Shown: piece by piece, positions 7,545 through 59,426 of the stretch
How positions within the stretch are numbered: the stretch's first letter is position 1
Layout of the letters: each line of letters starts with the position of its first letter
Assembly (NCBI GenBank): GCA_964356375.1
Contig: CAYHGT010000001.1
Coordinates: 9,221 to 73,220, forward strand
Reading direction: 5' to 3'
DNA length: 64,000 bases
Source of the DNA: an uncultured Candidatus Saccharibacteria bacterium
GTDB lineage: Bacteria; Patescibacteriota; Minisyncoccia; UBA6257; GWB1-50-10
Translations under genes and position numbers: made by a program
The notes under the pieces: model-generated
Seen by the model: only the letters and a program-made list of their open reading frames with translations
What the model was told of the DNA's origin: nothing
The model's database searches: none

Positions 7545-8693
7545 ATGAAAAAGAAATTATTCAATCCTTCAATTATTCAATCCTTCAATTTTCGGGGTGG
7601 TTTTACAATGCTTGAGCTTGTGATTGTGATTGCTATCATGGCTGTTCTTTCTACGGTCGGATTTGTATCGCTTAGCGGGTTTCGTGGTAAACAAAATCTT
7701 AAGAAAACCACGGACGAACTGGTGGCGGCAATCGTGGGAACGCAGAAACGCTCAATCTCACAAGATGCGGGAAGTAGGTGGAATGTACGCTTTTCAAATA
7801 CCACAAGTTCAGGAAGTCAATATATTGTGTTTTCGGGTACGAGTTATGCGACAAGCGCGATTGATAAAATATACGGCCTGAATCGCAATATTCAGTTTTC
7901 AGAACCATATTCCGGCAGTACATCTAATGCGTTTTTTGCTCCATTTACGGGCACGCTCCCCTCAAAAAAAATAATTTCAATGGTAACAGGTCGGCAGGAC
8001 GGATTTGTGGGGGACATTATTATGAATACAGCGGGGCTCGTGACTGGGCGCAATGAGAGTGGTCTTGTGGGATATTGGCATTTGGATGAAAACACATCCA
8101 CAACTGCGTATGACGCGTCTGGTATGGGGAATACTGGCGCTCTTGTGGGCACTTCTACGTGGCAGACGGGAATGAGTTGCGTATCAGGAAGTTGCTTGAG
8201 TTTTAATGGAAGTGGACAATATATAGATTCCGGGGCGAATTCCATTTTGGGTACTAAGCCTTTTACACTCACTGTGTGGATTAATACAAACAGTGTCGCG
8301 GGTTATAGTGGAGCAGTTTCAATTGGAACATCTGCGAGTGGTCAATCAGCATATATCGGAACCGTTGCGGTTGCACAGGTTGGCACGAGCAACTCTATTG
8401 GTGGTGGCTTCTATGGCGCAAATTATGGTTCGGGTATTACCACCACAGGTCAATGGGTTCACGTTGCCATGACATTTGCGGGCGGGTCAAATGGGGCTGC
8501 GATAATTTATGTAAATGGGCAAGTTCTTGTAAATACTACATACACACCGAATTTAGGAAGCGCGGTGAAAAGAATTGGCAGAATCGGGACCGACTCTACG
8601 TACGACTTTAACGGTTCAATTGATGAAGCTCGCATTTACAACCGCGCGCTTTCCGCGACTGAGATTTTGAATATGTATAATGACCTCAAATAA
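7545..8693 (+). CDS. Type IV pilin-like protein with a C-terminal LamG-like domain (paralog 2, tandem duplicate)
   Basis: The track ORF starts at 7518, but the in-frame ATG at 7545 reproduces the identical leader MKKKLFNPSIIQSFNFRGGFTMLELVIVIAI. The 93 bp 7539-7631 are identical to 6397-6489. C-terminus LVGYWHLDE...CVSGSC...DEARIYNRALSATEILNMY. Confidence 0.8.
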   Translation: MKKKLFNPSIIQSFNFRGGFTMLELVIVIAIMAVLSTVGFVSLSGFRGKQNLKKTTDELVAAIVGTQKRSISQDAGSRWNVRFSNTTSSGSQYIVFSGTSYATSAIDKIYGLNRNIQFSEPYSGSTSNAFFAPFTGTLPSKKIISMVTGRQDGFVGDIIMNTAGLVTGRNESGLVGYWHLDENTSTTAYDASGMGNTGALVGTSTWQTGMSCVSGSCLSFNGSGQYIDSGANSILGTKPFTLTVWINTNSVAGYSGAVSIGTSASGQSAYIGTVAVAQVGTSNSIGGGFYGANYGSGITTTGQWVHVAMTFAGGSNGAAIIYVNGQVLVNTTYTPNLGSAVKRIGRIGTDSTYDFNGSIDEARIYNRALSATEILNMYNDLK

Positions 8694-30198: not shown

Positions 30199-30224
30199 CG
30201 GATAGATTGGACTCTTTTTAACAA

Positions 30225-30510
30225 AAAACGGAACCGCGGGGACTTCGGTGGAAATTGAACATTGTTCGCATGCAACATTGCTCACTCCTTGGAACCCAGC
30301 GGTTCCTTGTGCCACGTCCCGCCGTTGGCGGGGCGACCCCCTTCTTTGTTCGATTTCCACAACTGGGTGTGACTCTTTTTAATAAAAACTCGCCGTCGCT
30401 CGTTTTCATTAAAAACCGGGGCTCACTGTGTGGCGGCGCTCGCCACACAACGCTGCGCCCTTCGAGTCCCAACGCGAGATGAGTAGTCGTCTCGCTCCTC
30501 AGGCAATCAA
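30225..30510. ncRNA. GC-rich ~290-nt non-coding region with several perfect hairpins; candidate structured RNA of unknown class
   Basis: GGAACCGC (30230-30237) pairs with GCGGTTCC (30299-30306). CCCGCC-GTTG-GGCGGG is at 30317-30333. TGTGTGGCG-GCGCT-CGCCACACA is at 30428-30450. The ORFs in the track here are low complexity. No tmRNA, SRP or RNase P signatures were found by eye. Confidence 0.25.
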
Positions 30511-30536
30511 AAAAGCGCTTTCGCGCTTTTTTTATG
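30511..30536. terminator. Bidirectional rho-independent terminator (AAAAAGCGC-TTTC-GCGCTTTTTTT)
   Basis: The perfect GCGC hairpin is flanked by an A-run and a T-run. It would terminate the minus-strand tRNA-Leu transcript and plus-strand readthrough. Confidence 0.65.
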
Positions 30537-30619
30537 TGCCTGAGGTGGGACTCGAACCCACACAGGGATTACCTACACGATTTTGAGTCGTGCGCGTATA
30601 CCAGTTCCGCCACTCAGGC
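30537..30619 (-). tRNA. tRNA-Leu (anticodon CAA), type II with a long variable arm
   Basis: Revcomp GCCTGAG TG GCGG..CGC G CACGA CTCAAAA TCGTG (variable arm AGG..CCT) GTGGG TTCGAGT CCCAC CTCAGGC A. All stems pair. CCA is not encoded. Confidence 0.85.
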
Positions 30620-30633
30620 TTTGTTTTCAAACA

Positions 30634-30879
30634 TCATTTTACTACAAACTCTGCCTTTATCCAGTCTTTGCCAACCCCCGATTTCAAGTATTTTTCTCGT
30701 TTTCTTGCTTCGGGTCTAGTTGTAAACGTCTCAGCGCACAGAAGCTCAAATGGTCGATAGGGGGCGGTGGTATGCCCCTTGCCTTTCTGGTGTTCGTTCA
30801 CTCTTCGCTCCAGATTGTTTGTAAGCCCAACGTAGATATAATTCTTTGTCGTGCTTTTTAGTACGTACACGAAAAACAT
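30634..30879 (-). CDS. Small GIY-YIG nuclease-family protein
   Basis: 81 aa: MFFVYVLKSTTKNYIYVGLTNNLERRVNEHQKG...REKYLK, a GIY-YIG core (YVYVL...YIGxT...R...H...E). Confidence 0.7.
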   Translation of the reverse strand: MFFVYVLKSTTKNYIYVGLTNNLERRVNEHQKGKGHTTAPYRPFELLCAETFTTRPEARKREKYLKSGVGKDWIKAEFVVK

Positions 30880-30891
30880 ATTTTAATATGA

Positions 30892-30960
30892 CGTGCGCGC
30901 CTACCTTCGGTAGGCAGGTATACCAGTGGAGTTTATCCGCCGCAGGCGGGCCACTCAGGC
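30892..30960 (-). other. Partial tRNA-Leu-like fragment (acceptor 5' strand + D-arm + anticodon-stem 5' strand) with two inserted GC hairpins, abutting the GIY-YIG start
   Basis: Revcomp GCCTGAGTGGC[CCGCCTGCGGCGGATAAACTCCA]CTGGTATAC[CTGCCTACCGAAGGTAGG]CGCGCACG. Its parts align to GCCTGAGTGGC-GGAA-CTGGTATAC-GCGCACG of the intact tRNA 270 bp away. Confidence 0.5.
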
Positions 30961-31018
30961 TTATTTTCAATTTCTATGCACATTGAGAATGCCATAGAAA
31001 TACGATAGAGTAAAGAGA

Positions 31019-58121: not shown

Positions 58122-59234
58122 ATGAAGGATTATTATTCAATTTTAGGAGTCGCACGTGGCGCATCCGAGGACGATATAAAAAAAGCATATCGTAAGCTTG
58201 CGCACCAATTTCATCCAGATAAGGCTGGCGGCAATGAGGCAAAATTTAAAGAGATAAATGAGGCATATCAAGTGCTTTCTAATAAAGATAAGCGCGCACA
58301 ATATGACCGTTTTGGCCATGTGGCAGATGGCGCGGATCAGGGCCCGATACCTGGTTGGGAGGGCTTTCAAGGGTTCGGCGGTCAGGGTGGACAGTGGAAT
58401 GTGAATTTTGGCGAGGATATTGGAGACCTCGGTGATATTTTTGAAACATTTTTTGGTGGCGGTGCTGGAGGTGGTAGGGCACAGAAACCCGCGTATAAAC
58501 GTGGAGCAAATATTGAAGCACACGAACGAATCTCGCTTGAGGAGGTATTTAGCGGTGTCACGCGCACGCTTAGATTTGAAACGTATGTAGCGTGTCCTCA
58601 TTGCAAGGGGTTGGGGTATGAAAAAAGCAAAGGTACATCACAATGTGCGAAGTGCAATGGTCGGGGAGAGACGCGCGAAGAACGCAGAACGGTGTTTGGT
58701 AGTTTTGTACAAGCAAAAGCGTGTGCAGATTGTCGCGGTAAGGGCGAGGTGCCAAATGAGAAGTGCCATGAGTGCAATGGTGTGGGAAGAAAAGTGAGTA
58801 CGCGCGAAGTTGATGTAGAAATCGCAAGAGGCATTGAGGACGGTCAGGTGATTAAGATCGCGGGGATGGGTGAGGCGGGAGAGCTTGCGAGTGGCACGGG
58901 CGACCTCTATGTAGTTGTGCGCGTAAAACCACATGCGCAGTTTGAACGTCGCAAGGACGACCTTACAACAGAAAAAGAAATCAAGGTGACGGACGCGCTT
59001 TTAGAAAAAGAAATTGAGATGGTGGATATTAATGGTGCGCGTTATACAATTCAGATTCCCGCGGGATTTAACTTGAATGAGTCACTTAAGATCACGGGGC
59101 GAGGTATGCCAAAGTTTGGTTTGTTTGGCGCCTACTCGCGTGGTAACTTATATGTTCGCTTGAACGCAAAACTTCCAAAATCACTCTCACACAAAGCCAA
59201 AAAACTTTTGGATGATTTGGACAAGGAGCTGTAG
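58122..59234 (+). CDS. dnaJ: Chaperone DnaJ
   Basis: J-domain with HPD, a Gly-rich linker, and four CxxCxGxG zinc-finger repeats. Confidence 0.9.
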
Positions 59235-59426
59235 GGAGATGGCTCTCTTCTTGCCTTTCGGAACCAGAATATTTTTCTGTTGAAAAATTCCTGCCTACCG
59301 GCAGGCAGGTCTTCCCCCTCAGCCACCTTCGTGGCTTGTGGGATGTTCCTCAAGGCAAGAAGAGCGCCAAGCGTGGAGTGAGGGGTGAAGAGGGTGAGGC
59401 TCGCTTCAACAGAAATTTTATAATAC

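Follow-up and report, generated by a model that had tools for sequence, protein, structure and literature searches.

What is a nuclease gene doing between a complete tRNA gene and a broken copy of the 5′ part of the same tRNA? The question is raised by a locus on the minus strand of a 64,000-nt stretch of contig CAYHGT010000001.1, from an uncultured Candidatus Saccharibacteria bacterium; the whole of this 64-kb stretch is called the window below. A first-pass annotation had placed at this locus an intact tRNA-Leu(CAA), a GIY-YIG open reading frame (ORF), a tRNA fragment ending 12 nt before the ATG and a terminator, all of which were found where it had put them, and had read the arrangement as the trace of a GIY-YIG element aimed at a tRNA gene, whose 5′ part it duplicated. 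The analysis reported here supports that interpretation as essentially right but understated. The locus is probably a small selfish cassette, made up of a single-domain GIY-YIG nuclease gene and a cognate 20-nt palindrome, CCTGCCTGCCGGCAGGCAGG, which has lodged at a tRNA-Leu gene.

A nuclease gene between two copies of one tRNA

The window was analysed with ARAGORN, the Rfam tRNA model and a Pfam search, and its features are described in the order of the minus strand, on which the tRNA, the gene and the fragment all lie. The fragment (30892–30960), a disabled upstream copy of tRNA positions 1–31, comes first and is followed by a 12-nt linker to the ATG (30880–30891, TCATATTAAAAT), by the intact 81-aa single-domain nuclease gene (30634–30879), by a 14-nt spacer from the ORF stop to tRNA position 1 (30620–30633, TGTTTGAAAACAAA) and by the intact tRNA-Leu(CAA) (30536–30619), which is the downstream and presumably functional copy of the duplication. 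The intact tRNA was called by ARAGORN and scored 59.2 bits with the Rfam tRNA model (E 7.5e-12). The fragment reads GCCTGAGT[GGCCCGCCTGC]GGCGGA[TAAACTCC]ACTGGTATA[CCTGCCTACCGAAGGTAGG]CGCGCACG, in which the outer brackets mark insertions. Its four tRNA-derived blocks (30953–30960, 30936–30941, 30919–30927 and 30892–30899) are separated by three insertions of 11, 8 and 19 nt, and together they are identical to the tRNA at 31 of 31 positions, bearing out the earlier claim that the fragment reproduces the 5′ part of this very tRNA. The gapped local alignment between fragment and tRNA scored 43.5, and among 6335 other 95-nt windows, taken from both strands, none scored above 30.1. Within the 64 kb, CTGGTATAC occurs only at the fragment and at the intact tRNA, with 0.11 occurrences expected. 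A 5′ leader of about 10 nt is also common to both copies, as TTGAAAATAA before the fragment and as TTGAAAACAAA before the intact tRNA, where it occupies 30620–30630 of the spacer.

The fragment copies part of the gene at the level of sequence and has no tRNA-like fold. It gave no match to the Rfam tRNA model at E<=10, and its fold as an RNA was not unusually stable (z = -1.12), on which ground a stable tRNA-like RNA leader was rejected. At the locus as a whole, Rfam matched the intact tRNA alone and returned no family for the fragment, the hairpins or the structured elements downstream. The first-pass annotation had held that its reading would fall if the resemblance to tRNA disappeared under covariance-model scoring. 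The covariance match is indeed absent and the 31/31 sequence copy stands; such scoring is a poor refutation test, because half a tRNA carrying 38 nt of insertions is not scorable. A split tRNA, a tRNA intron and a tmRNA were likewise rejected as explanations, since nothing is missing from the downstream tRNA, the fragment is broken by the palindrome and ARAGORN called no tmRNA.

Occupied, empty and decayed alleles in close relatives

Related alleles were recovered with the neighbouring ParA protein and a 25-nt promoter pattern, and three of them (L085, L126 and L127) were aligned with the window. All four share an essentially identical stretch of about 57 nt (30961–31018, minus strand, in the window), which now lies 5′ of the fragment, is common with the divergent parA gene and probably represents the native promoter and leader region of the tRNA. 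In L085, whose ParA is 87% identical, this flank leads directly into a tRNA that is 100% identical to that of the window, with no ORF, no fragment and no palindrome. L126 has the same flank and then, again directly, a tRNA-Leu(CAA) that differs at two adjacent variable-arm columns; it is without ORF and without fragment and carries the exact terminator of the window, i.e., the bidirectional terminator-like hairpin (AAAAAAAGCGCGAAAGCGCTTTTTT) that lies after the tRNA at 30506–30535 and is flanked by A and T runs. L127 retains the first part of the fragment with the same degenerate hairpin, followed by about 20 nt resembling the start of the ORF, a large deletion and an intact tRNA, which is also 100% identical to that of the window. 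In L088, a more distant relative (ParA 68%), the tRNA is present and the cassette is absent.

The window, the pair L085 and L126, and L127 form an allelic series of occupied, empty and decayed states. Because the empty L085 and L126 and the ORF stub of L127 stand on the same flanks, the cassette is an insertion that later decays. It entered the tRNA-Leu(CAA) gene with duplication of the 5′ part of the tRNA (leader plus positions 1–31), so that one complete tRNA is left on the downstream side of the ORF. The insert measures about 340 nt, its sole ORF is the 81-aa GIY-YIG gene and it contains no integrase. Thus, the comparison of relatives that the first-pass annotation had suggested did turn up empty sites; L127, which might be taken for a relative that keeps the fragment without the gene, is no refutation, because it represents an element in decay and not an empty site with a fragment in it.

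Recurrence at tRNA-Leu genes across phyla

The arrangement is not peculiar to this bacterium. A set of 80 loci encoding close homologues was assembled from species-representative genomes of Patescibacteria, Bacteroidota, Ignavibacteria, Balneolota, Planctomycetes and Omnitrophota, with a few bins labelled Gammaproteobacteria or Nitrospira. In 70 of the 80, the immediate same-strand neighbour of the ORF is a tRNA-Leu gene, with anticodon CAA, GAG, TAA, TAG or CAG. The order found in the window (DOWN) occurs at 51 loci, where the tRNA mostly starts 0–15 nt past the stop codon, most of the gaps that correspond to the 14-nt spacer of the window measuring 0–7 nt, and some ORFs read into the tRNA. 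At the 19 loci of the opposite order (UP), the tRNA mostly ends 40–67 nt before the ATG, and a terminator lies between tRNA and ORF. A partial copy of the adjoining tRNA, usually 100% identical to it, is found at the opposite end of the ORF in nearly every case: the upstream copy of DOWN loci spans position 1 to somewhere between 23 and 73, the duplication in most of them starting exactly at tRNA position +1, and the downstream copy of UP loci runs from position 11–65 to the 3′ end and includes a duplicated terminator. The general form is tRNA copy, ORF, tRNA copy, with either copy kept functional. An RNA-mediated origin, as a copy of a 5′ tRNA half, was rejected, since some upstream copies reach position 70–73 and UP loci duplicate the terminator too.

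The tree of the nuclease mixes phyla as well as both gene orders, and close proteins differ in gene order. Three of the ORFs (L051, L055 and L070) contain in-frame stops. Occupation is confined to some of the tRNA-Leu genes, and the isoacceptor concerned varies. More distant homologues, at 44% identity, show this layout at other genes. One of them (L130, 1250–1596) has the same layout with an intact tRNA-Arg(ACG) about 9 nt after the ORF and an upstream fragment that holds a variant palindrome, CCTGTCTGCTGACAGGGAGG. Another (L122/L131, 490–870) has a fragment with the exact palindrome in its D-loop and, after the ORF, a second copy of the same 5′ sequence that runs on into other sequence; ARAGORN called no tRNA in L131, and the fragment was read as tRNA-Lys-like from the CTTTTAA of its anticodon-loop region.

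The outcome resembles that left by tRNA-targeting islands and prophages, whose insertion at a tRNA gene also regenerates a complete tRNA and leaves a partial copy as a far-side direct repeat. However, the insert here measures only about 340 bp and has neither a tyrosine nor a serine integrase, the duplicated part may be the 5′ or the 3′ portion, and the leftover copy is interrupted by palindromes.

Linkage to tRNA-Leu that is so extremely tight and widespread could also be expected of a host gene that serves tRNA-Leu in processing, quality control or repair and forms an operon with its substrate, in which case the fragment and its hairpin would act as a leader in regulation or processing, or as an RNA decoy. 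The first-pass annotation had raised a related alternative, that the 5′ half supplies a promoter or processing context for the nuclease mRNA. This alternative is compatible with the position of the fragment behind the native promoter region, which is 100% conserved with the empty sites, and with the lack of a terminator between fragment, ORF and tRNA in the window; that lack also counts in favour of a host gene. COG4123 is now regarded as a tRNA m6A37 methyltransferase. Stand-alone prokaryotic GIY-YIG genes have been described as neighbours of COG4123 methyltransferases and in fusion with a TrmH-like tRNA methyltransferase, an RNA role being suggested by the authors for the TrmH-like fusion only (PMC1564403). 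However, the close relatives L085 and L126 do without the gene, L127 has lost it and pseudogenised copies exist; the choice of some tRNA-Leu genes, of changing isoacceptor, also speaks against a host function, as do the unexceptional fold of the fragment and leftover copies whose length, side and palindrome position change from locus to locus, which would not be expected of a conserved leader. The Ssn nucleases introduced below are, moreover, inactive on RNA (PMC11893778). Taken together, these observations make a host function quite unlikely and are better matched by a selfish cassette.

A palindrome inserted into the redundant tRNA copy

The insertions of about 20 nt in the leftover tRNA copies are one and the same sequence, the perfect palindrome CCTGCCTGCCGGCAGGCAGG. 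Scored near the ORF (within -200/+250 nt), it is present exactly in 44 of the 80 loci and with <=3 mismatches in 63, and the 205 kb of outer flanks contain a single copy. A total of 60 insertion sites were mapped in tRNA coordinates, with both flanks placed for 39. Insertion took place after an A at 55 of the 60 sites and was clean, with neither duplication nor deletion, at 38 of the 39. Insertions are concentrated in the D-loop (GGAA^TTGG, TAGA^CGCG) and the T-loop (TCGA^TTCC) and along the edges of the anticodon loop. The redundant upstream tRNA copy has been broken up by these palindrome insertions.

These data bear on another account of the locus, namely that an ordinary tandem tRNA duplication has decayed and that the ORF and hairpins are unrelated neighbours. 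Tandem tRNA duplications and tRNA gene fragments are said, in one bioRxiv preprint, to be common in prokaryotic genomes. However, the three-part arrangement recurs in 70 of 80 loci across phyla, and the exact 20-mer is concentrated beside the ORF, with at least one copy in most loci compared with the sparse background of the outer flanks. The comparative data contradict the chance account, which has next to no probability left and is regarded as excluded.

The first-pass annotation had described two inserted GC hairpins in the fragment. Both are present; rather than being incidental, they appear to be degenerate copies of the conserved palindrome, and they lie 21–71 nt upstream of the ATG. Hairpin 2 (CCTGCCTACCGAAGGTAGG, 30900–30918, minus strand) is a degenerate form of the family palindrome that sits behind tRNA position 23 (TATA^CGCG), a hot spot of the family, and a near-identical variant with one base different (CCTGCCTACCGAAGGTAAG) is found in the Ekhidna lutea locus L016. 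Hairpin 1 (CCCGCCTGCGGCGG, 30937–30950, minus strand), a more decayed palindrome-like insertion in the D-arm region, is common to L127 and resembles CCTGCCTGCGGCAGG of L016, suggesting that it too is a palindrome relic. A second copy of the palindrome in the window, CCTGCCTACCGGCAGGCAGG, with 1 mismatch, lies at 59290–59309 in an intergenic position after a gene ending at 59234, far from any tRNA or GIY-YIG gene.

Viral contigs (IMG/VR) contain 42 exact copies of the palindrome, mostly isolated and some of them inside other tRNA genes. In two such contigs (L115, 2239–2330; L092, about 8590–8660), the exact palindrome occupies the variable-loop position of a tRNA-Met gene (…CTCATACCCACGAGG^palindrome^TCGCCGGTTCGAATCC…). 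ARAGORN still calls a 92-nt tRNA-Met in L115, so that such insertions may be annotated as tRNAs with a long extra arm. The isolated palindromes of three others (L099, L093 and L109) are accompanied by short direct repeats of 14, 8 and 7 nt, unlike the clean insertions in tRNA, and several of them sit in locally repetitive sequence.

Repeated copies were also seen in some genomes. L042 (2413–3086) has four near-full-length tRNA-Leu copies with a 192-nt period, each interrupted by the palindrome at the same position; L019 (2354–2632) has tandem near-full-length tRNA-Leu copies, again with the palindrome at the same position in each; and L011 (2393–2543) has three palindromes in tandem. Some of the arrayed copies at these three loci are called as tRNA genes by ARAGORN. 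Automated gene prediction sometimes lengthens the ORF, or adds spurious ones, across the tRNA fragment and palindrome (P0033; in the window, an ORF at 30746–30970, minus strand), and this read-through yields N-terminal peptides such as …WYTCLPAGRR…, an annotation artefact of the element family.

A minimal GIY-YIG nuclease resembling Ssn

The 81-aa protein matched the Pfam GIY-YIG family (PF01541) at 66.2 bits (cut-off 22.6) over residues 1–67. Residues Y5, Y16, G18, R26, H30, E62 and K66 are invariant across 28 aligned sequences and include the complete catalytic set, i.e., the tyrosines of the GIY and YIG motifs, the arginine, the histidine and the metal-binding glutamate (Y5, Y16, R26, H30 and E62, respectively). 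The protein consists of the GIY-YIG domain alone, with no extra domain. More than 600 homologues were found at 55–74% identity, with homologues measuring 77–100 aa. The contig of the window is one of groundwater Patescibacteria (CPR), and the same protein is present on Hainich aquifer assemblies. The protein is 46% identical to B. subtilis YazA (UPF0213) and matches the UPF0213 structure 1zg2 at E 7.6e-5. By its sequence, it is a minimal single-domain nuclease that resembles the Ssn family and not a modular homing endonuclease of the I-TevI type.

The Ssn nucleases are single-domain GIY-YIG proteins of about 94 aa, which bind hairpin repeats (NTS/SRM) flanking their own gene and cut adjacent single-stranded DNA (Chenal et al. 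2025, PMC11893778). No activity was observed on double-stranded DNA or RNA, and the authors likened the repeat-gene-repeat unit to a mobile element or insertion sequence, leaving the role and the spread of the repeats open; the word tRNA is absent from that paper (PMC11893778). A search of a plasmid collection with the window protein gave three weak matches, one of which, on plasmid AZO_p3 of Azospirillum lipoferum 4B (L128), was used as an Ssn-type reference. This locus has a 97-aa GIY-YIG gene between sufB and sufC, with an inverted pair of repeats on each side (679–762 and 1103–1187); three of these four canonical Ssn repeats are CGTCATCCCCGCGAAGGCGGGGATCCAG and one is a 2-nt variant, and the repeats are almost the same as the Neisseria NTS. 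As an Ssn-type locus it is a textbook case, and its protein is 43% identical to that of the window (pairwise E 8e-14).

The system described here shares with Ssn a nuclease of about 80–100 aa made of the GIY-YIG domain alone, a gene beside hairpin-forming inverted repeats of 20–50 nt that also occur elsewhere, and the identity just mentioned to a homologue with canonical SRM repeats. In contrast, the repeat here is a perfect, unoriented palindrome; the published SRM consensus, HGTCWYN(0-2)YYVSBRHN(0-5)WNVSBRGN(0-2)RNCYNB, had no match in the 64-kb window and fitted none of the 80 loci, with four matches in the positive control, the Azospirillum locus. Usually one repeat stands beside the gene here rather than one on each side, the repeat appears to be low in copy number whereas Ssn repeats occur in hundreds of copies, and the strict association with tRNA-Leu, the duplicated part of the tRNA and the demonstrable empty site set the present loci apart. 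The protein is therefore a candidate member of the Ssn family, and Ssn serves as a strong working analogy.

The first-pass annotation had thought of a homing-endonuclease-type element. That the element targets a tRNA gene holds; the protein itself is minimal and Ssn-like and not of the modular homing type. According to a classical homing account, a free-standing GIY-YIG endonuclease of the T4 Seg/I-TevI type would make a double-strand break in the empty tRNA-Leu allele and be copied in by repair, and the hairpins would destroy the residual target and so confer immunity. The cassette does share with T4 SegA-G and I-TevI a GIY-YIG catalytic domain, presence/absence polymorphism on conserved flanks between close relatives (the window against L085 and L126), a location within or beside tRNA genes, which are attractive conserved targets, and a cycle of invasion and decay; T4 SegB itself acts in a tRNA gene cluster. 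There is also a weak match to TIGR01453, the model of group I intron endonucleases. However, that match reaches only 21 bits against a cut-off of 56.05 and covers residues 3–35 alone, the protein has neither a linker nor a DNA-binding domain (81 aa compared with >200), and the gene is not in an intron and comes with a palindromic repeat and a long target duplication. The immunity logic fails at UP loci, where the intact tRNA has all of the interrupted copy, and the same exact 20-nt palindrome occurs at many different positions, also far from tRNA. A classical homing endonuclease is thus unlikely, and the selfish cassette with its own palindrome remains the preferred reading.

How the cassette may work

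A possible mechanism can be outlined for such a cassette. Duplication of part of the tRNA, originally perhaps of all of it, would preserve an essential gene during insertion. The ORF would be transcribed from the promoter native to the tRNA, the fragment serving as its 5′ leader, and the tRNA would be cut from the same transcript or driven by a promoter-like site in the end of the ORF. A site of this kind is present at 30636–30663 (minus strand; TGGATA-16-TAAAAT) and could drive the downstream tRNA on its own, although it comes from a consensus scan only, with 9/12 matches, and is not evidence of function. By analogy with Ssn, the nuclease may recognise the palindrome as a hairpin in single-stranded DNA and cut nearby. 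Breaks made in this way would drive recombination, by which the cassette could spread among tRNA-Leu genes with the conserved tRNA as a portable homology arm. The same activity may seed new palindromes at exposed loops of folded tRNA-gene DNA, and a palindrome in the redundant copy, by shortening the direct repeat, would protect the cassette from deletion by recombination. Eventually cassettes decay, as is seen in L127 and in the pseudogenes of other loci.

Several points weigh against this account. The single-stranded DNA specificity and the hairpin recognition are borrowed from Ssn, and the protein is itself no more than a putative member of that family, being about as similar to YazA of UPF0213; the failure of the palindrome to fit the SRM consensus in any locus or in the window counts in the same direction. 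To our knowledge, GIY-YIG enzymes hydrolyse DNA and do not ligate it, and the clean insertion of a 20-nt palindrome by a hydrolytic nuclease is unexplained. The duplication start at tRNA +1 in most DOWN loci is not directly predicted by the proposed DNA-level mechanisms. Because a terminator separates tRNA and ORF in UP loci, co-transcription is not general, and because the hairpins of the window are degenerate, this copy may now be inactive.

A further-reaching possibility, which we regard as doubtful, is that the palindrome and the minimal GIY-YIG protein form an autonomous single-stranded-DNA mobile system. Its landing pad would be tRNA-gene DNA folded as a cloverleaf, in which it would cut after A in exposed loops and install the hairpin, and occasionally the whole gene, without target duplication; the tRNA duplication would let the system colonise essential single-copy tRNA genes across phyla. 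Such a system would recall REP/RAYT and the IS200/IS605 'peel and paste' elements, with which the cassette has in common a short palindromic repeat tied to a single nuclease gene of its own, insertion 3′ of a short motif (here A) that leaves the target site unduplicated, and insertion where single strands are expected. However, the sole ORF here encodes a hydrolytic GIY-YIG protein rather than an HUH/Y1 transposase that forms a covalent intermediate. We know of no strand-transfer chemistry for GIY-YIG enzymes. If the possibility were true, the transposition or homing mechanism would be new for GIY-YIG enzymes and would explain the multiplication of Ssn-type hairpin repeats.

Conserved non-coding elements downstream of the tRNA

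Two conserved non-coding elements were observed downstream of the tRNA-Leu. The first, of about 135 nt, lies at 30222–30368 (minus strand) in the window, at 2178–2312 in L085 and at 872–992 in L127. It has a predicted long closing stem and three inner hairpins, with compensatory changes at 9 predicted pairs, and is conserved in these three relatives; it has no Rfam match and is absent from L126. Direct repeats of 18 nt, GACTCTTTTTAAyAAAAA, flank it in the window, at 30210 and 30371, and because of these repeats it may itself be inserted. The second block lies at 30366–30505 in the window and at about 1080–1190 in L127, on the opposite side of the structured element in the latter. Its minus-strand core is GGGACTCGAAGGGCG..AGCGTTGTG[hairpin]CACAG.GAGCCCCGGTT..CGAGCGACGGCGAG, and the sequence of the hairpin differs between the window and L127 with the pairing kept. 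On the plus strand of this block, TTCGAGTCCCA and CCTCAGGCA match the T-arm and 3′ acceptor end of tRNA-Leu (11-nt and 9-nt matches); a tRNA origin is not claimed. An inverted tRNA 3′ half on the plus strand at 30420–30505 was considered as a second relic and rejected, since the region is a conserved element that also occurs in L127 in a different order.

Implications

A literature search found no published description of a nuclease-palindrome arrangement at tRNA-Leu. Annotation can mistake palindrome-interrupted tRNA copies for tRNAs or carry ORFs through them. A new pair of nuclease and hairpin specificity could serve as a tool for single-stranded DNA. Culturable carriers exist, e.g., Ekhidna lutea DSM 19307, Algoriphagus kandeliae XY-J91 and Zunongwangia sp. 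H14.

The description of the Ssn nucleases dates only from 2025 and left open what they do outside Neisseria and how their hairpin repeats spread, with mobility hypothesised only. The locus and its relatives supply an allelic series of occupied, empty and decayed states. They also supply a defined, universal target, tRNA-Leu, joined in more distant relatives by tRNA-Arg and perhaps others, and a precise rule of hairpin insertion, i.e., without target duplication, after A and mostly in tRNA loops. As judged from its sequence, the cassette thus appears to pair an Ssn-like nuclease with a hairpin, to target a specific tRNA and to pass through a life cycle whose stages are visible.

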